From IMG/VR virus record IMGVR_UViG_2541047963_000003: a stretch of 42,009 nt of DNA; one strand, 5' to 3'. Shown here piece by piece: positions 5,655-19,566 of the stretch (within the stretch, counting starts at the first letter, position 1; each line of letters begins with the position of its first letter). The position numbers and the translations under genes were made by a program. Below the pieces are notes generated by a model that was not told where the DNA came from, made no database searches, and saw only the letters and a program-made list of their open reading frames with translations. The stretch comes from a virus (taxonomy: Duplodnaviria; Heunggongvirae; Uroviricota; Caudoviricetes).

Positions 5655-6344
5655 CTACCCATGCTTCCTATATGTCTGCGGCATGCTCCCAATAACCTTA
5701 CCGAAGATGAACACCCGGTTCATCTCGTCTTTCTCGATCGGGTCCCACGGTGAGTAGCTTTTGTTATCAGAGATGACCAGCAGCTTATCCTTCATCATTT
5801 GCAGGCGCTTTACATGGGCTGTGTCGTCGTACAGAAACGCATAGATACCATCACCGTCGAAAGATTTAACTGTGATATCAACGAACAGCAGATCACCTGG
5901 TTCGATCGTTCCTGACATGCTGTCACCACGCACGTTAATGATGCGGATATTTTCCGCCTTCCTACCATCGAACATGTGACGAGCATCGTCAAACGAGTAC
6001 TCAACCGAGCGTAGAACTTCTACAAACTCACGGTTGATGACTCCCGGCCCAGCACTGACTTCTATATCAAGAACGTCAATCTTGAAGTATTTGGAATGGC
6101 TGACAGTTGATTGTATTGGTTGCACTGTACTGTCTGACATATTTCCAACGCCAGAAGATAACCATTCTGCGCGCACACCCAAAGCGTTCGCGATCTCCAC
6201 GATTTTAGTTGTTTGATTAGCTTTCCCTGTTTCGATTTTCTGAATAGCAGCCTGGCTAACCCCGACCAAATCCCCAAGCGCCTTTTGTGTAAGGCCTCGC
6301 GCTAATCTGGCTTCTTTAAGTCTTTCTGAGAGTGTTGTTTTCAT
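5655..6344 (-). CDS. cI: Prophage repressor, cI-like (XRE-family HTH plus S24 LexA-like peptidase domain)
   Basis: 229 aa from MKTTLSERLKEARLARGLTQKALGDLVGVSQAAIQKIETG (HTH); C-terminal GDSM...KRL resembles the S24 Ser/Lys dyad region; divergent from cro across an operator region. Confidence 0.85.
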   Translation of the reverse strand: MKTTLSERLKEARLARGLTQKALGDLVGVSQAAIQKIETGKANQTTKIVEIANALGVRAEWLSSGVGNMSDSTVQPIQSTVSHSKYFKIDVLDIEVSAGPGVINREFVEVLRSVEYSFDDARHMFDGRKAENIRIINVRGDSMSGTIEPGDLLFVDITVKSFDGDGIYAFLYDDTAHVKRLQMMKDKLLVISDNKSYSPWDPIEKDEMNRVFIFGKVIGSMPQTYRKHG

Positions 6345-6748: not shown

Positions 6749-7288
6749 ATGCAACCACTTACATACCAACAGACTAGCGGATTTAGCCCGACTGCGGTGA
6801 TAAATCGTTCTCAAACAAAACAGGTGCCAGGCCACGAAAAAATCCGTGATGCCGTCCGCGCCTGGTCGGCTGTAGATAATCAGGATGTCGTTGCCACACT
6901 CATTGTGAATGAGTATCGGGAGCAGGGCGGCGGCACCATCGATTTCCCTGATGATGTCAGCCGTGCACGCCAGAAGCTGTTCCGCTTCCTCGATAACAAA
7001 TTCGATTCTGAAAAATACCGAAATAACGTGCGTGAACTGACCCCGGCAATTCTGGCGGTACTACCGCTGGAATATCGCGGTTACCTGGTTGAGCAGGATA
7101 GCTTCATGGCTAGGTTGGCTGAAATGGAAAAGGAACTCAGTGAGGCAAAACAGGCTGTCATTCTCAACGCACCACGCCACCAGAAACTGAAGGAAATTAG
7201 TGAAGGTATTGTGTCGATGTTTCGTGTGGACCCAGATCTGGCTGGTCCATTGATGGCGATGGTTACTACCATGCTGGGGGCGATATGA
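6749..7288 (+). CDS. CII-position regulator, possibly CP76/phage-186-CII-like
   Basis: 179-aa ORF between cro and O with RBS AGGAG; size and position fit the CP76-type CII family rather than 97-aa lambda CII; family assignment from memory only. Confidence 0.5.
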   Translation: MQPLTYQQTSGFSPTAVINRSQTKQVPGHEKIRDAVRAWSAVDNQDVVATLIVNEYREQGGGTIDFPDDVSRARQKLFRFLDNKFDSEKYRNNVRELTPAILAVLPLEYRGYLVEQDSFMARLAEMEKELSEAKQAVILNAPRHQKLKEISEGIVSMFRVDPDLAGPLMAMVTTMLGAI

Positions 7289-9956: not shown

Positions 9957-11483
9957 ATGAAAAAAGCCATAGCATATATGCGATTTTCATCACCAGGTCA
10001 GATGTCTGGTGATTCATTAAACCGCCAGAGAAGGCTTATTACTGAATGGCTAAAGGTAAATAGTGATTATTACCTTGATACCGTAACGTATGAAGATTTG
10101 GGGTTAAGCGCATTCAATGGAAAGCATGCACAATCAGGAGCTTTTTCGGAATTTTTAGATGCTATAGAACATGGTTACATATTGCCAGGGACTACATTGT
10201 TAGTTGAAAGTCTGGACAGACTTTCAAGAGAAAAAGTCGGTGAAGCGATTGAGCGTCTGAAATTGATTTTGAATCACGGTATTGATGTTATAACTCTTTG
10301 CGATAATACAGTCTATAATATAGACTCATTGAATGAGCCATATTCATTAATAAAAGCCATACTTATAGCACAAAGGGCAAATGAAGAAAGCGAGATAAAG
10401 TCAAGTCGGGTTAAATTATCATGGAAGAAAAAACGGCAGGATGCACTGGAATCAGGCACGATTATGACGGCGTCTTGTCCGAGATGGCTCTCATTGGATG
10501 ACAAAAGAACAGCTTTTATTCCAGACCCCGACAGGGTGAAAACGATTGAGCTAATTTTTAAACTCAGGATGGAAAGGCGATCATTGAATGCAATAGCTAA
10601 GTATTTAAATGATCATGCTGTAAAAAATTTTTCAGGAAAAGAAAGTGCATGGGGGCCTTCTGTAATTGAAAAATTATTAGCGAATAAAGCTCTGATAGGT
10701 ATATGCGTACCTTCATATCGTGCAAGAGGGAAAGGGATAAGTGAAATCGCTGGCTATTATCCCAGAGTCATATCAGATGATTTGTTTTACGCTGTACAGG
10801 AAATTCGGTTGGCACCTTTTGGTATTAGCAATAGTAGCAAGAATCCTATGCTAATAAATCTACTTCGAACAGTTATGAAGTGTGAGGCTTGTGGTAATAC
10901 CATGATTGTTCATGCGGTATCTGGACGTTTGCATGGCTATTATGTTTGTCCGATGAGAAGATTACATCGATGTGACAGGCCATCAATAAAAAGAGATTTG
11001 GTTGATTATAATATCATTAATGAATTGCTTTTTAATTGTAGCAAAATTCAACCAGTTGAAAACAAGAAAGATGCTAATGAAACTTTAGAGTTAAAAATTA
11101 TTGAGCTTCAGATGAAAATTAATAATTTAATCGTTGCATTGTCTGTCGCGCCTGAAGTTACCGCTATAGCAGAGAAAATAAGACTATTAGATAAGGAATT
11201 ACGAAGGGCTTCGGTATCATTAAAAACTTTGAAGAGTAAAGGGGTGAGTTCACTTGGTGATTTTCATGCTATTGATTTAACCAGTAAAAATGGGCGAGAG
11301 CTATGTCGTACACTTGCCTATAAAATATTCGAAAAAATTATAATTAATACAGATAATAAAACCTGTGATATCTATTTTATGAATGGCATTGTTTTTAAAC
11401 ACTATCCTTTAATGAAAGTAATATCCGCCCAGCAGGCGATAAGTACTCTTAAATATATGGTTGATGGTGAGATTTATTTTTGA
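9957..11483 (+). CDS. ybcK: Large serine recombinase (YbcK-like)
   Basis: 508 aa; N-terminal resolvase-type catalytic region (AIAYMRFSSPGQ...LLVESLDRLSR), Cys-rich zinc-ribbon-like segment (CEACGN...CPMRRLHRCD), C-terminal coiled-coil-like region; matches my recollection of DLP12 YbcK; visibly AT-rich gene. Confidence 0.85.
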   Translation: MKKAIAYMRFSSPGQMSGDSLNRQRRLITEWLKVNSDYYLDTVTYEDLGLSAFNGKHAQSGAFSEFLDAIEHGYILPGTTLLVESLDRLSREKVGEAIERLKLILNHGIDVITLCDNTVYNIDSLNEPYSLIKAILIAQRANEESEIKSSRVKLSWKKKRQDALESGTIMTASCPRWLSLDDKRTAFIPDPDRVKTIELIFKLRMERRSLNAIAKYLNDHAVKNFSGKESAWGPSVIEKLLANKALIGICVPSYRARGKGISEIAGYYPRVISDDLFYAVQEIRLAPFGISNSSKNPMLINLLRTVMKCEACGNTMIVHAVSGRLHGYYVCPMRRLHRCDRPSIKRDLVDYNIINELLFNCSKIQPVENKKDANETLELKIIELQMKINNLIVALSVAPEVTAIAEKIRLLDKELRRASVSLKTLKSKGVSSLGDFHAIDLTSKNGRELCRTLAYKIFEKIIINTDNKTCDIYFMNGIVFKHYPLMKVISAQQAISTLKYMVDGEIYF

Positions 11484-11808: not shown

Positions 11809-11834
11809 GCCCGCATAAGTGCGGGCTGCTTTTT
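11809..11834 (+). terminator. Intrinsic terminator hairpin between ybcK region and the convergent esterase gene
   Basis: GCCCGC-ATAAGT-GCGGGC stem-loop followed by TGCTTTTT; overlaps the esterase stop codon. Confidence 0.5.
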
Positions 11835-12876
11835 ACAGGTCAGCGTTTGTTTTTTGTTGTTGGGTAGCGGTTTTTATGGGGGTTCCCAGGTTTTTAGTAA
11901 ACCACTCAACAACTCTGTTTATAATAATTGGCTGATACCATGTATTATCGCCATGCTCGGCCCCTTCTACCAGCACGTACTCAGCGTTATCACCGTTCTT
12001 CTTCAACATCCTGAATAGTTTGGCGCTTTGCTCAGGTGAAACCAGAGTGTCTTTGCTACCATGCATAATAAGAAATGGGGGTTTTACTCCTTTCATATGT
12101 CCGATTGGACTGGCGTTTAGCGCTTTTTCTTTTGACGCTGTGATGGGGGCTCCCGCAAAATTTCTGAATGCAGGGCCATTGATCATTAAGGCTTCGGTTA
12201 CGGCAGGAGAGCGATGAACCTCCTGCACTGATTCAGGGAACCCCTCGCCAATATTCAACAAGTCAGAAATCCCATAAAGTGTGGCAACTGCCTGAACATC
12301 TGAGGATTGCTGAAGAAAGTCACCTTTATCAAAGGTTTTGTCACCATTTGTAGTTCCCATCATCTGGGCAAGCCATCCACCGGCAGAGTCACCCAGAACT
12401 CCGATTCTTTGAGGATCAATCCCATAATTGCTGGCATGCTCTCTCAGGTAACGTATTGCAGCTTTTCCATCCTCAACTGGTGCTGGAAATGTATCAGGAA
12501 TTGTTCTGTATTCTACAGCGGCCACAACAAAACCAGCTTCTGCCAGAGCCATTCTCATTTCAATAAATTTGTCATGTTCAGAAGACATGAATCCGCCGCC
12601 GGGATAATAAATAATGGCTGGTTTTAAATCATTTGTTCGCGGGACAAGAACTGACATGTGAAGCTGTCTGACAGAACGAGTTCCTTTTATCTGGGAATAA
12701 ACAACATCACCAATGAGATCGACCTGGTTTCTGGTCGGTGAAACACTAATGATATCTGCACCCGGGGTGTAACCAGGAAGATTAGTCTGGACAGGTGTTG
12801 CACAACTCCCGACCGACATGGCCATTGACATACCATACAATAGTGTTGCAGATGATAATATCTTGTTAATTTTCAT
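11833..12876 (-). CDS. Secreted alpha/beta-hydrolase, hormone-sensitive-lipase-family esterase/lipase (possible lipoprotein)
   Basis: 347 aa; N-terminal signal peptide with possible lipobox (MSVGSC); oxyanion-hole PGGGF; nucleophile elbow GDSAGG; downstream HGSKD and AEHG consistent with an Asp/His triad. Confidence 0.8.
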   Translation of the reverse strand: MKINKILSSATLLYGMSMAMSVGSCATPVQTNLPGYTPGADIISVSPTRNQVDLIGDVVYSQIKGTRSVRQLHMSVLVPRTNDLKPAIIYYPGGGFMSSEHDKFIEMRMALAEAGFVVAAVEYRTIPDTFPAPVEDGKAAIRYLREHASNYGIDPQRIGVLGDSAGGWLAQMMGTTNGDKTFDKGDFLQQSSDVQAVATLYGISDLLNIGEGFPESVQEVHRSPAVTEALMINGPAFRNFAGAPITASKEKALNASPIGHMKGVKPPFLIMHGSKDTLVSPEQSAKLFRMLKKNGDNAEYVLVEGAEHGDNTWYQPIIINRVVEWFTKNLGTPIKTATQQQKTNADL

Positions 12877-14591: not shown

Positions 14592-14728
14592 TGTTTGAGT
14601 CTTATATGGCAGAGCGTCTTCGCCGCCGCTGGGTGCGCCTGCGCTTATATCGTTTTCCTGGTTCTGTTTTGACCGATTACCGGATACTGAAGAATTACGC
14701 CAAAACACTGAAAGGAGCTGCCGCATGA
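14588..14728 (+). CDS. ylcG: YlcG-like small protein
   Basis: 46-aa [49 protein letters not shown], overlapping rusA stop and the next start; below the track cutoff. Confidence 0.5.
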
Positions 14729-15414
14729 ATACCCAATATTTACAGTATGTCCGCGAGCAACTCATTGTGGCTACCGCTGATTTGAGCGGAGCAACGAAAG
14801 GACAGCTTGAAGCCTGGCTGGAGCATGCACAATTTGATACTGGTACATACAAACGAAAGAAGCCGCGCATTCTGGATGAGGTAACTGGCAGGATGATTAC
14901 GCTGGATAATCCGCCGATTTCCGGTAAGCAGTCGTACGTAAAAGGTTCATCCATTGCACTGGTCAGCCAGGTTGAGTTCTCAACCTCGTCATGGCGCCGC
15001 GCGGTTCTGTCTCTCGAAGAACATCAGAAAGCGTGGTTGCTGTGGAGTTACAGCGAAAGTGTTCGCTGGGAACATCAGGTCACCATAACGCAGTGGGCAT
15101 GGAGCGAGTTTAAGACTCTGTTGGGTACCAGGAAAATTGCAGGTAAAACACTGGAACGTTTGAAGAAGTTGATCTGGCTGGCGGCACAGGATGTGAAGAA
15201 CGAGCTGGCAGGGCGTAAGACCTATGAATACCAGGAGCTGGCATCACTGGTGGGAGTGACATCAAAAAACTGGTCTGAGACATTTACTGAACGCTGGGTT
15301 GCAATGAAGCACATTTTTCTACAGCTTGATAGCCAGGCTTTATTGCTTTTAACGAAAACACGTTCAAAACAAAAGACCATATTTTCACAGCAAGATATTG
15401 CAAAACTGGATTAA
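14725..15414 (+). CDS. Putative late-gene antiterminator Q (non-lambda type)
   Basis: 229-aa ORF sitting between rusA/ylcG and the lysis cassette, followed by a promoter-like element and terminator hairpins; not similar to lambda Q; call is positional. Confidence 0.55.
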   Translation: MNTQYLQYVREQLIVATADLSGATKGQLEAWLEHAQFDTGTYKRKKPRILDEVTGRMITLDNPPISGKQSYVKGSSIALVSQVEFSTSSWRRAVLSLEEHQKAWLLWSYSESVRWEHQVTITQWAWSEFKTLLGTRKIAGKTLERLKKLIWLAAQDVKNELAGRKTYEYQELASLVGVTSKNWSETFTERWVAMKHIFLQLDSQALLLLTKTRSKQKTIFSQQDIAKLD

Positions 15415-16041: not shown

Positions 16042-16504
16042 TCCTCAGCGTAAAGCTTTCCTCGATATGTTGGCGTGGTCAGAAGGAACGGATAACGGAC
16101 GGCAGCCAACCCGCAATCACGGCTACGACGTCATTGTTGGCGGAGAGCTATTCACTGATTACTCCGATCACCCTCGCAAACTTGTCACGCTAAACCCCAA
16201 ACTCAAATCAACAGCAGCCGGACGTTACCAGCTTCTTTCCCGTTGGTGGGATGCTTACCGTAAGCAGCTTGGCCTGAAAGACTTCTCTCCCAAAAGTCAG
16301 GACGCTGTGGCACTGCAACAGATTAAAGAGCGTGGCGCTTTACCGATGATTGACCGCGGTGATATTCGTCAGGCAATCGACCGTTGCAGCAATATCTGGG
16401 CTTCACTGCCGGGCGCTGGTTATGGCCAGTTCGAGCATAATGCTGACAGCCTGATTGCAAAATTCAAAGAAGCAGGCGGAACGGTCAGAGAGATTGAGGT
16501 ATGA
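16028..16504 (+). CDS. R: Endolysin R (lambda-type lytic transglycosylase)
   Basis: 158-aa ORF near-identical by recollection to lambda R ([21 protein letters not shown]...). Confidence 0.95.
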
Positions 16505-16962
16505 GCAGAGTCACCGCGATTATCTCCGCTCTGATTATCTGCATCATCGTCTGCCTGTCATGGTCTGTTAATCATTACCGTGATAACGCCATTACCTACA
16601 AAGCCCAGCGCGACAAAAATGCCAGAGAACTGAAGCTGGCGAACGCGGCAATTACTGACATGCAGATGCGTCAGCGTGATGTTGCTGCGCTCGATGCAAA
16701 ATACACGAAGGAGTTAGCTGATGCGAAAGCTGAAAATGATGCTCTGCGTGATGATGTTGCCGCTGGTCGTCGTCGGTTGCACATCAAAGCAGTCTGTCAG
16801 TCAGTGCGTGAAGCCACCACCGCCTCCGGCGTGGATAATGCAGCCTCCCCCCGACTGGCAGACACCGCTGAACGGGATTATTTCACCCTCAGAGAGAGGC
16901 TGATCACTATGCAAAAACAACTGGAAGGAACCCAGAAGTATATTAATGAGCAGTGCAGATAG
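16501..16962 (+). CDS. Rz: Spanin inner-membrane subunit Rz
   Basis: 153 aa with N-terminal TM segment and coiled-coil body; matches lambda Rz. Confidence 0.9.
16721..16903 (+). CDS. Rz1: Spanin outer-membrane lipoprotein Rz1, embedded in Rz in the +1 frame
   Basis: 60-aa ORF with lipobox (VVGC) and the proline run [15 protein letters not shown], as in lambda Rz1. Confidence 0.85.
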
Positions 16963-16993
16963 AGCTGCCCATATCGATGGGCAACTCATGCAA

Positions 16994-17287
16994 TTATTGT
17001 GAGCAATACACACGCGCTTCCAGCGGAGTATAAATGCCTAAAGTAATAAAACCGAGCAATCCATTTACGAATGTTTGCTGGGTTTCTGTTTTAACAACAT
17101 TTTCTGCACCACCACAAATTTTTGCTGCATCGACAGTTTTCTTCTGCCCAATTCCCGAAACGAAGAAATGATGGGTGATGGTTTCCTTTGGTGTTACTGC
17201 TGTAGGTTTGTTTCCAACAGTAAATGTCTGTTGAGCACATCCTGTAATAAGCATTGCCAGAGCGGCAGAAAACAACATTTTTTTCAT
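16994..17287 (-). CDS. bor: Bor lipoprotein (serum-resistance moron)
   Basis: 97 aa from MKKMLFSAALAMLITGCAQQTF...; matches lambda Bor; the track ORF extends 16 codons further upstream. Confidence 0.9.
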   Translation of the reverse strand: MKKMLFSAALAMLITGCAQQTFTVGNKPTAVTPKETITHHFFVSGIGQKKTVDAAKICGGAENVVKTETQQTFVNGLLGFITLGIYTPLEARVYCSQ

Positions 17288-17767
17288 CTTATTATCCTGC
17301 ATTGTTAAAAACGGCAGAATCCTATGTGACAACAATTAAACGATAGTTAAATGGATTGATGAAAATTAAAACTACACAGGTGGGCTCAGACTATTGGAGG
17401 AAGTTGGGGACACTCAGAATCCTGTGGAATGAAATAAACCGGTCTATCCGTCCATTACCCTTTTAGCTGCGCTGTATCGTCGCCGGATTCCCGCATTAAC
17501 CATGACCGTAGCCCGACGGGGAATTCCTTCTGCGTGAGTGTGCGGGAATAATTAAAAACGATGCACACCGGGTTTTTACCGCGTTAATGATTCGCGGGTT
17601 TATCCCGGTGCGATGGTGGAAGAAACAGGAAGCTGTATTACAGAAAGTGCTACTACTGTATCCCGATGCGATGTATGTAATGTGAGTCAGATAATGGCAC
17701 AGGATGTGGTGATGTGGCAGTCTGGAACACAGGATATATTGTCAGAATAAGACCCGTAGGAATAAAA

Positions 17768-18094
17768 ATGAAAAGACGCCTTTTACTACTTTTTCTGTTA
17801 TCTGTCCTGGCAGTGGGATGCTCGCAGCAAAAAGCTGATGAGCCCCGGCAATTAGTGACGGTGTATCCACGATATCCGGAATATGCTGCAGCAAATTATA
17901 TCAAGGGGCTGGTTGAGGTTAAGTTCGATATTGGTGCTGATGGGACTGTGACACGGATCGTTTTTCTCCGCTCAGAGCCTCATAATTTGTTTCGTGATGA
18001 AGTGGTGAAGGCCATGGCGAAATGGCGATTTGAAAAGAATCGCCCCTGTCAGGGAGTGAAGAGACAATTTATCTTTACGCCGTCACGTCCTTGA
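17768..18094 (+). CDS. Lipoprotein with a TonB C-terminal-like domain
   Basis: Signal peptide plus lipobox (MKRRLLLLFLLSVLAVGC); segment YPEYAAANYIKGLVEVKFDIGADGTVTRIVFLRSEPHNLFRDEVVKAMAKWRFE aligns by eye with E. coli TonB C-terminal domain ([45 protein letters not shown]); RBS AGGA 7 nt upstream. Confidence 0.6.
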   Translation: MKRRLLLLFLLSVLAVGCSQQKADEPRQLVTVYPRYPEYAAANYIKGLVEVKFDIGADGTVTRIVFLRSEPHNLFRDEVVKAMAKWRFEKNRPCQGVKRQFIFTPSRP

Positions 18095-18457
18095 TGCTTC
18101 CAGGTAGAGAGGGGCTGGAAGCAGGAGAAAAATGAAAGAGCCAGCGGTTATATTTTTGTCATGGCTGACGAGGAATGATGGAAGAAGGCGTTGTATGCCA
18201 CACAACGCCTCACTGTTCATTTCTTCTTTTTCTCTGGTGGAACCCGATGAATAAGAGTTGCACTGGTTTCCGATGAGATGGCGATATACTCGGGCAAAGT
18301 ATGCTGGCAGTTTTCCAACTGGTCAAAAATACCTGCTCTCGTCTGTTGCAATGCCTGCAGCATGCGGCGGCAATGCGCCTTGCTTTTACTAACCATCTTT
18401 CCTTCCTCTATCAGTCGCTGCGTGAACTCATCATGGAATACCAGGTAAATGCGGATG

Positions 18458-18709
18458 TTATCGGTTTTGGCTACGCAGCATAGTACAAAACGGACAGGTG
18501 CATCCCGGGACGGGGGAGGCGTCACATGTCCCTGTGATGGTTGTTCCGGGTAATGTACTGTGTGGGGCATAAAAATGTCCGATAATTTTACTTTCTACCG
18601 CAGTTAGTTGATTCGTTGGTCCTGGTAGCACATTGGGCGAGGATTTAAATGCCAGGCAACTGAAGGATGATGTCGCAAGGGAGATAGCGAGAATATTTCT
18701 GATTTTCAT
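18458..18709 (-). CDS. Hypothetical small secreted Cys-containing protein
   Basis: 83 aa from internal ATG (MKIRNILAISLATSSFSCLA...) with signal-peptide-like N-terminus and GTCDASPVPGCTCPFC; overlaps other ORFs on both strands, so the true coding frame here is uncertain. Confidence 0.25.
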   Translation of the reverse strand: MKIRNILAISLATSSFSCLAFKSSPNVLPGPTNQLTAVESKIIGHFYAPHSTLPGTTITGTCDASPVPGCTCPFCTMLRSQNR

Positions 18710-18829
18710 TTGATGATGCCTCTGTGTGAAATGACGGTAAACGACGCACTTGTGCCGGCACGTAATAGCAAGCACCATAATAGATCAGATTCGATTCTTG
18801 CTGTAAGTGATAATTATTCTCGTTTTTGG

Positions 18830-19040
18830 GTCCTTTCCGTCGATCCAACAGGTTACGGGGCGGCGACCTCGCGGGTTTTCGCTATTTATGAAAATTTTCC
18901 GGTTTAAGGCGTTTCCGTTCTTCTTCGCCGTAACTTAATGTTTTTATTTAAAATACCCCCTGAAAAGAAAGGAAGCGACAGGTGCTGAAAACGGGCTTTT
19001 TGGCCTCTGTCGTTTCCTTTCTCTGTTTTTGTCCGTGGAA
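18830..19040. other. cos: cos packaging site (cosQ, cosN, cosB)
   Basis: GGGCGGCGACCT at 18858-18869 is the lambda 12-nt cohesive end, followed by CGCGGGTTTTCGCTATTTATGAAAATTTTCCGG (lambda left-end sequence); Nu1 starts 178 nt downstream. Confidence 0.85.
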
Positions 19041-19046
19041 TGAACA

Positions 19047-19566
19047 ATGGAAGTCAACAAAAAGCAGCTGGCTGACATTTTCGGTGCGAGTATCCGTACC
19101 ATTCAGAACTGGCAGGAACAGGGAATGCCCGTTCTGCGAGGCGGTGGCAAGGGTAATGAGGTGCTTTATGACTCTGCCGCCGTTATAAAATGGTATGCCG
19201 AAAGGGATGCTGAAATTGAGAACGAAAAGCTGCGCCGGGAGGTTGAAGAACTGCGACAGGCCAGCGAGGCAGATCTCCAGCCAGGGACTATTGAGTACGA
19301 ACGCCATCGACTTACGCGTGCGCAGGCCGACGCACAGGAGCTGAAAAATGCCAGAGACTCCGCTGAAGTGGTGGAAACTGCATTCTGTACTTTCGTGCTG
19401 TCGCGGATCGCAGGTGAAATTGCCAGTATTCTCGACGGGATCCCCCTGTCGGTGCAGCGGCGTTTTCCGGAACTGGAAAACCGACATGTTGATTTCCTGA
19501 AACGGGATATCATCAAAGCCATGAACAAAGCAGCCGCGCTGGATGAACTGATACCGGGGTTGCTGA

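Follow-up and report, generated by a model that had tools for sequence, protein, structure and literature searches.

The 42,009-nt window analyzed here (IMG/VR virus record IMGVR_UViG_2541047963_000003; Caudoviricetes) is a complete lambdoid prophage, and between its lysis genes and its cohesive-end site it carries a gene for a 108-amino acid (aa) lipoprotein that joins a lipoprotein signal to the C-terminal domain of TonB. The gene lies on the plus strand at 17768-18094 (stop codon included), as supported by its open reading frame (ORF), its sequence, Pfam and PDB matches, and the ratio of nonsynonymous to synonymous substitution rates (dN/dS). Purifying selection maintains the protein, and most of the relatives examined in enterobacterial chromosomes are preceded by a strong Fur-box-like site, whereas the window copy is not. 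The explanation that we rank first, tentatively and at somewhat less than an even chance, is that the protein would be tethered to the outer membrane and compete there for the partners of TonB.

The ORF begins with an ATG at 17768 and ends with a TGA at 18094, exactly as placed by a first-pass annotation made from the sequence alone. A Shine-Dalgarno AGGA is located at 17758-17761 (+), 6 nt before the ATG, and is annotated as a ribosome-binding site in the phage 21 record. A longer form starting at GTG 17714 was considered and is unsupported, as variants of 70-72% identity all begin at the same MKR and an upstream indel breaks the frame. The N-terminus of the product, MKRRLLLLFLLSVLAVGC, starts with a basic n-region and continues through a hydrophobic core of 12 residues to a lipobox whose last residue is Cys18; the next residue is Ser. 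As read from the sequence, the signal peptide covers M1-G17 and, together with the Cys18 codon (17819-17821), occupies 17768-17821 (+), with MKRR followed by LLLLFLLSVLAV and then the G17/C18 junction (also written MKRR-LLLLFLLSVLAVG-C18-S19). On visual comparison with the classical pattern for lipoboxes, {DERK}(6)-[LIVMFWSTAG](2)-[LIVMFYSTAGCQ]-[AGS]-C, the 108-aa protein conforms, with the Cys at the end and Ser rather than Asp at position +2. The lipobox Cys is retained in nearly all short relatives examined, and the +2 residue is Ser, Thr or Ala in the phage variants and in most relatives. The lipoprotein signal (LAVGC) read in the first-pass annotation is thus borne out both by the fit of LAVG/C18 to the pattern, with Ser at +2, and by conservation of the Cys. 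With Ser at +2, acylation and sorting to the outer membrane by Lol would be expected, leaving a mature protein of ~91 residues.

The remainder of the protein is a TonB C-terminal domain. Residues 26-103 (17843-18076, +) correspond to residues 153-230 of E. coli TonB by ungapped alignment, HMMER and fold match, and the alignment extends gap-free from Asp24 to the C-terminus against TonB 151-235, with 32 of 85 residues identical (38%). Pfam TonB_C (PF03544) matches residues 33-99 with E=7.3e-13 and 49.2 bits against a cut-off of 24.6, and TIGR01352 (tonB_Cterm) scores 47.4 bits against a cut-off of 27.1. When the protein was compared with PDB sequences by phmmer, the HMMER alignments matched the TonB C-terminal-domain chains 1u07, 2gsk_B and 2grx_C at E values of about 1e-14. 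An AlphaFold model built from a shallow alignment has a mean predicted local distance difference test (pLDDT) score of only 65, with 70-80 over most of the domain, and its order of helix, two strands, helix and strand is that expected for the TonB C-terminal fold. The best Foldseek matches in the PDB were again 1u07, 2grx_C and 2gsk_B, with a probability of 1.0 and template modeling (TM) scores of 0.76-0.82 normalized to the target; all significant fold matches are TonB C-terminal domains, and 2grx_C and 2gsk_B are TonB chains from complexes with FhuA and BtuB. The likeness to TonB had at first been seen by eye, and the sequence comparisons (Pfam, TIGR01352, phmmer and the ungapped identity) all agree on it, as does the fold of the model, within the limits of that pLDDT. 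We conclude that the domain is homologous to the C-terminal domain of E. coli TonB (residues 150-239), with the same predicted order of helices and strands. The YP pair of TonB is kept (Y36 and P37), as is G186 (G59), and all five aromatic positions of the TonB domain (F180, F202, W213, Y215 and F230) are kept as F53, F75, W86, F88 and F103, the only change being Phe for Y215. Also retained are the positions equivalent to TonB 225-231, the final strand of the domain, which in the FhuA and BtuB co-crystals reportedly pairs with the TonB box.

In contrast to TonB, the phage protein lacks the membrane anchor, the rod and the last four TonB residues, and R158, Q160 and R166 are replaced. No N-terminal transmembrane anchor of the TonB type was found, the only N-terminal hydrophobic stretch being the cleavable lipoprotein signal, and there is no proline-rich spacer, as just seven residues (SQQKADE) lie between Cys18 and Pro26, where the annotated domain starts. 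Hidden Markov models (HMMs) for full-length TonB equivalogs (NCBIfam PRK10819 type) match only at model positions ~150-240, the last ~90, with 45-69 bits; the best score is 69.2 bits against a cut-off of 315, and cut-offs across the models range from 265 to 448, so that the protein does not qualify as a full-length TonB. The absence of anchor and spacer proposed in the first-pass annotation is confirmed by these alignments and by the seven-residue linker. A further difference concerns location, as the lipoprotein signal should hang the domain from the outer membrane, whereas TonB is held in the inner membrane.

The protein is 100% identical by tblastn to CPT_21_73 of phage 21, annotated as 'TonB C-terminal domain protein', and to WP_000830178 of E. 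coli Nissle 1917, named 'TonB family protein'. The domain assignment itself is therefore already public, in the phage 21 annotation and in RefSeq. The identical protein is also encoded in phages ev017, Perceval and three PhiR phages, and its exact sequence occurs on 1000 contigs or more. Of 5426 complete E. coli genomes, 1614 (~30%) contain 80% or more of window 17440-18100, with carriers that include Nissle 1917, avian pathogenic E. coli (APEC) and ST131 strains; among phage records, the gene was found in only 15 of 50,697. A second allele, 70-72% identical, is carried by Stx1a phages, JLK-2012 and Lys8385Vzw, and a 41%-identical relative is found in a Klebsiella prophage. Between the two E. 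coli alleles synonymous divergence is saturated (dS 1.5-2.7) and dN/dS is 0.07-0.12, and within the second allele group dN/dS is 0.18. The 108-aa length, the lipobox and the domain are all preserved between the variants. A dN/dS of 0.07-0.2 in the face of saturated dS indicates that the protein is maintained by purifying selection. As a separate observation, a 418-bp contig (NZ_SJEX01000172.1) from an assembly of the actinobacterium Modestobacter excelsi shows 100% protein identity to this prophage segment, which is almost certainly assembly contamination.

These data bear on the idea that the gene is a functionless remnant of a captured tonB, which older annotations imply in names like 'Partial tonB-like membrane protein encoded within prophage CP-933N', 'TonB fragment' or 'truncated TonB-like membrane protein'. 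We regard this as scarcely credible. Unlike tonB, the gene encodes a signal peptide and lipobox, and decay is contradicted by the selection analysis; moreover, the length is conserved, one exact sequence is widespread, and a whole family shares the same architecture. This is a maintained gene with an architecture of its own, and the older labels 'partial' and 'truncated tonB' are misleading because dN/dS is low and because length, lipobox and domain are preserved between alleles.

The position of the gene is also conserved. The prophage includes int, recombination genes of the exo/bet type, a CI-like repressor, O, P and a lambda-type Q (14725-15414), and the order after Q is S, R, Rz/Rz1, bor (on the minus strand), the TonB_C gene, cosN, Nu1, A through J, lom and stf. 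Among these, Rz (i-spanin) at 16501-16962 (+), with Rz1 (16721-16903) embedded in it, ends the lysis cassette and is assigned from the phage 21 annotation; bor, the gene for a serum-resistance lipoprotein, is located at 16994-17287 (-) with a Pfam Lambda_Bor match of E=1.7e-30; and the cosN cohesive-end sequence GGGCGGCGACCT is found as an exact match at 18858-18869 (+), the TonB_C gene ending 764 bp before it. A survey of the distribution of the gene, one of the checks suggested at the outset, showed a constant post-lysis position on the late-operon strand in all 80 viral contigs recovered and in the annotated phage records examined. Where upstream sequence is available the gene follows R/Rz/Rz1, and where downstream sequence is available the terminase genes come after it; the 100%, 72% and 41% variants, which are from E. 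coli and Klebsiella, all show this arrangement. The upstream lysozyme varies between lambda R and phage 21 R, and the terminase between Nu1/A and HNH-TerS-TerL. The first-pass annotation had put the gene beside bor in a zone of accessory genes (morons) next to cos. The placement between the lysis genes and cosN holds, but the gene is on the strand opposite to bor, and bor, although clearly present in the window, is an optional neighboring moron, with no recognizable copy in about a third of the TonB_C-bearing viral contigs. Carriage of the gene does not track the type of J protein, the C-terminus of which in the window resembles those of Stx-phage and 2G7b-type J proteins.

Location directly downstream of R/Rz/Rz1 on the same strand, together with a lipoprotein signal that would direct the product to the outer membrane as for Rz1, raises the question of a lysis accessory or spanin-like protein, and the protein indeed matches phrog_1267, named 'Rz-like spanin' (category lysis), with E=5e-43. 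This we consider very improbable. A complete Rz/Rz1 pair is already present in the window, no Pfam family besides TonB_C matches at E<=1 and so none to Rz1 (PF06085), the product is a folded domain of 90 residues and not a short proline-rich peptide, and relatives occur in chromosomes with no lysis genes nearby. A spanin identity was accordingly rejected, given that no homology to Rz1 was found and that the true Rz1 lies inside Rz. The phrog_1267 label looks like annotation by position, and it will propagate.

An exhaustive HMMER search recovered many proteins of 105-133 aa with a single TonB_C domain and 35-49% identity, most of which have a lipobox. These relatives come from Salmonella, Klebsiella, Gibbsiella and Rahnella, where their source names say only 'TonB family protein', and in representative genomes they occupy ordinary chromosomal neighborhoods of Klebsiella, Raoultella, Serratia and Erwinia. 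None of the lysis or packaging genes of the window was found near the chromosomal relatives at the loci examined in these last four genera. Across all of these genera the lipoproteins share with the phage protein an architecture of lipobox plus single TonB_C domain. The feature that sets most of the chromosomal loci examined apart from the window copy is a strong Fur-box-like site, scored here against the consensus GATAATGATAATCATTATC out of a possible 19, that lies 24-79 nt before the ATG. In Serratia grimesii the site scores 17/19 and is the sole such site on either strand of 12.3 kb; in Klebsiella sp. R390 a 16/19 site is accompanied by an exact 7-1-7 motif, TGATAATnATTATCA; and in Raoultella the match is 15/19. 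Sites of this kind were located in chromosomal and metagenomic relatives (L011 at 5925-5943, L004 at 5972-5986, L005-L009 and L104-L141). Among metagenomic family loci, 17 of 28 distinct loci have a match of at least 14/19 within 150 nt upstream, compared with 0.4% of 485 random windows from the same contigs. For 11 of 14 chromosomal loci tested (scores of 14-17/19), composition-matched shuffles equaled the observed score in 0-8 of 500 cases. Because Fur boxes are enriched upstream of the chromosomal relatives, the family can be tied to the iron and TonB regulon, and the relatives are predicted to constitute an iron-starvation-induced family that has not been described before.

Induction by iron starvation fits at least as well with a protein that modulates or helps TonB-dependent uptake as with a brake, for instance an accessory that docks TonB at the outer membrane or raises its concentration there, or one that caps idle transporters. 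The Fur-box-like sites of Serratia, Klebsiella, Raoultella and several metagenome lineages speak for this explanation. By extension, the prophage copy could be a fitness factor in iron-poor niches, like its neighbor bor/iss, and here the presence of the gene in Nissle 1917, APEC and ST131 strains and its frequent position next to bor/iss would be in keeping. Nevertheless, no way is known in which a TonB tip that is not coupled to energy could promote transport, and for free periplasmic domains of TonB the one experimental precedent cited (PMC9841981) is inhibition. Furthermore, the Fur box of the phage copies is lost or degraded, with scores of 10-13/19 and that of the window within the range of shuffles, which argues that the phage does not use the gene in an iron-regulated way. 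We judge a helper role unlikely for the family, and the fitness-factor view of the prophage copy equally so.

In the window the best Fur-box scores are 10-11/19, no site exceeds 11/19, the GATAAT at ~17690 included, and 95% of shuffles score as well; the Klebsiella phage copy reaches 12/19. The 72% allele has an 8-1-8 palindrome, AGAATAAGaCTTATTCT, at the same offset, which scores 13/19 against the Fur consensus (shuffle fraction 0.08) and overlaps a predicted extended -10 element. This element, TGTCAGAAT in the window (17740-17748, +) and TGTTAGAAT in the 72% variant, lies 20-28 nt before the ATG and was identified by regular expression and by eye; the block that contains it directly upstream of the gene is conserved between the alleles despite saturation of synonymous sites in the ORF. 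Comparison of window 17750-17757 with 2444-2470 of a locus carrying the 72% allele (L016) reveals that 13 nt are missing from the window just before the Shine-Dalgarno sequence. The deletion takes out the right half of the palindrome and may represent loss of the operator. We infer that the family is iron regulated in chromosomes, and that phages probably took the gene together with its promoter from this Fur-regulated lipoprotein family and placed it after the lysis cassette, keeping a short promoter-like element while the Fur operator decayed. As to expression from the prophage, the Q-modified, antiterminated late transcript of lambda starts just after Q and must read through this gene. Given its late-strand position after the lysis genes, the gene should therefore be expressed late in lytic growth.

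How might such a protein act? Without the transmembrane helix that couples TonB to ExbB/ExbD and without the proline-rich rod, it cannot transduce energy, and competition with TonB is the simplest outcome for a TonB tip that lacks energy coupling. At the outer membrane the domain would sit adjoining the periplasmic face of the transporters and could occupy the partners that genuine TonB has to contact. These would be the TonB boxes carried by TonB-dependent transporters and by group-B colicins on their way in, or perhaps the TonB tip itself. The result would be less TonB-dependent entry of T1/phi80-type phages, colicins and microcins, at the cost of some loss of siderophore and B12 uptake. A mechanistic model for such a decoy is provided by engineered periplasmic fragments of TonB, in which, as in the phage protein, the periplasmic domain of TonB is uncoupled from ExbB/ExbD; the constructs of Howard, Herrmann, Stratilo and Braun were reportedly soluble laboratory derivatives of E. 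coli TonB made at high level. The phage protein differs from these in being natural, diverged and lipid anchored. The first-pass annotation had appealed to inhibition of TonB-dependent transport by isolated TonB fragments, and this precedent is real: PMC9841981, citing Howard et al. (2001), states that the overexpressed periplasmic TonB domain inhibits TonB-dependent (iron) import.

The effect of a TonB decoy would resemble that of Llp of phage T5 and Cor of phi80, N15 and HK022, small phage outer-membrane lipoproteins that exclude superinfection by acting through the periplasmic side of FhuA and that establish this mode of exclusion for a TonB-dependent transporter. TonB binding partially occludes the periplasmic face of FhuA, where Llp acts, and TonB and Llp compete (FhuA:Llp preprint, bioRxiv 10.64898/2026.03.26.714494). 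The phage protein is nevertheless unrelated to Llp and Cor in sequence and fold, with no link through PHROG, Pfam or fold; the only family matches obtained were TonB_C and phrog_1267/34172. In addition, the target of Llp and Cor is one receptor, but the TonB box to which a TonB tip would bind is shared by all TonB-dependent transporters, so exclusion would operate through the common TonB step instead of through a single receptor.

Several observations weigh against a TonB decoy. Fur-boxed relatives would be switched on by iron starvation, just when the need for TonB-dependent uptake is greatest and a pure inhibitor of iron uptake seems counterproductive; this is a poor fit to a simple brake and leaves room for a modulatory or even positive role. 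For the phage copy, a protein made late in lytic growth only would bring no obvious benefit from exclusion of phages or colicins, and a two-hexamer scan for sigma-70 promoters gave no plus-strand hit in the interval from bor to the gene, such that the predicted extended -10 motif is the sole candidate element for expression in a lysogen. None of the anti-phage defense models of PADLOC-DB 2.0 matched, with 0 families at E<=1. The geometry is also reversed, as the N-terminus of the native TonB domain leads toward the inner membrane and the short tether here leads back to the outer membrane. Finally, binding of TonB boxes is a prediction from homology, and three positions that we take to be contacts of TonB with TonB-box partners, or sites of suppressor mutations, are not conserved: Q160 is Y or L, R158 is T or K, and R166 is Y. 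With these changes the partners may differ from those of TonB, and TonB-like domains can bind other proteins, as FusB does with ferredoxin.

This last point admits a further explanation, that the domain binds something else in the periplasm, for example a substrate protein, ExbD, peptidoglycan or a phage protein. Consistent with this, the C-terminal domain of the TonB homologue FusB, solved with ferredoxin, is among the best matches by fold and by sequence (7zc8, 9hi3), and the altered positions 158, 160 and 166 would be understandable. On the other hand, the closest sequence relatives of the protein are enterobacterial TonB proteins, and the core residues of TonB are retained. Nor is there an obvious phage-encoded partner, since no TonB-box-like motif ([DE]T[ILMV][VT]V) occurs in any window ORF longer than about 90 aa in six frames. 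We consider a partner outside the TonB system rather improbable, slightly more so than a helper role, and continue to place competition for TonB partners first.

Other features of the region were noted. A conserved noncoding element of ~175 nt with a predicted plus-strand RNA fold lies upstream of the TonB_C gene at 17468-17645 (+). It is conserved at 75-99% across lambdoid prophages, better than the TonB_C gene itself, and matches in 4583 of 5426 E. coli genomes; matches to a 661-nt query, most of which cover only this element, are found at up to 11 places per genome, and one copy adjoins iss on a ColV plasmid. In the loci examined, the element always lies behind the lysis genes, oriented with the late strand, and occurs independently of the TonB_C gene. 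RNAalifold predicts 43 pairs, with 98.2% of cells paired and three pairs showing compensatory changes. About 70 of the 601 cells are G-U pairs, and hence pairing is better in the plus strand than it would be in its complement. An Rfam search of 16900-19100 at E<=1 returned nothing relevant, including for this element, and the fold of the whole 321-nt leader was not better than that of shuffles (z=-1.18). Downstream, a block between the gene and cos (18132-18778) accompanies the 100% allele in nearly all loci and contains candidate ORFs at 18132-18254 (+), 18301-18483 (+, hypothetical WP_000881610) and, as an overlapping minus-strand pair, 18217-18570 (-) and 18458-18778 (-); none of these ORFs has a Pfam match. 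Further away, in the stretch separating the replication genes from Q, 9957-11483 (+) encodes a large serine recombinase of 508 aa with Resolvase, Recombinase and Zn-ribbon domains, and 11833-12876, in the opposite orientation (-), encodes an alpha/beta-hydrolase of the BD-FAE esterase family. Together these look like cargo or a second mobile element, besides the lambda-type integrase at 1-1143. Immediately to the right of the CI-like repressor region and before O, the ORF at 6749-7288 (+) has a YdaT_toxin domain (E=8.5e-30).

Full-text literature searches found no functional study of the protein, and a fold search of the catalogued viral proteins in BFVD gave no match at E<=1e-3. In the literature searched, a function for the protein, the lipoprotein architecture of the family as a whole, the post-lysis position on the late strand and the contrast in Fur boxes appear to be unreported. 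In its widest form, our proposal is that Fur-controlled outer-membrane lipoproteins bearing a TonB tip are an unrecognized part of the TonB system of Enterobacterales, and that the lambdoid phage copy, uncoupled from iron and wired into the late operon, shuts the common TonB gate and thereby shields the cell, with one protein and independently of the receptor, from TonB-dependent phages, group-B colicins and microcins. We put this forward as a possibility, and a doubtful one as a whole. Were the decoy to be correct, it would be a phage outer-membrane lipoprotein that disables TonB-dependent receptors by mimicking their shared transducer and not by binding a receptor. TonB-dependent transporters are the entry route for many coliphages, group-B colicins, several microcins and siderophore-antibiotic conjugates, and iron acquisition by pathogens relies centrally on them. 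A TonB tip that occurs naturally, is mobile and carries a lipid anchor would serve as a general-purpose modulator of TonB-dependent entry, and it could alter the response of lysogens to phage therapy cocktails, competitors that produce bacteriocins and 'Trojan horse' antibiotics.

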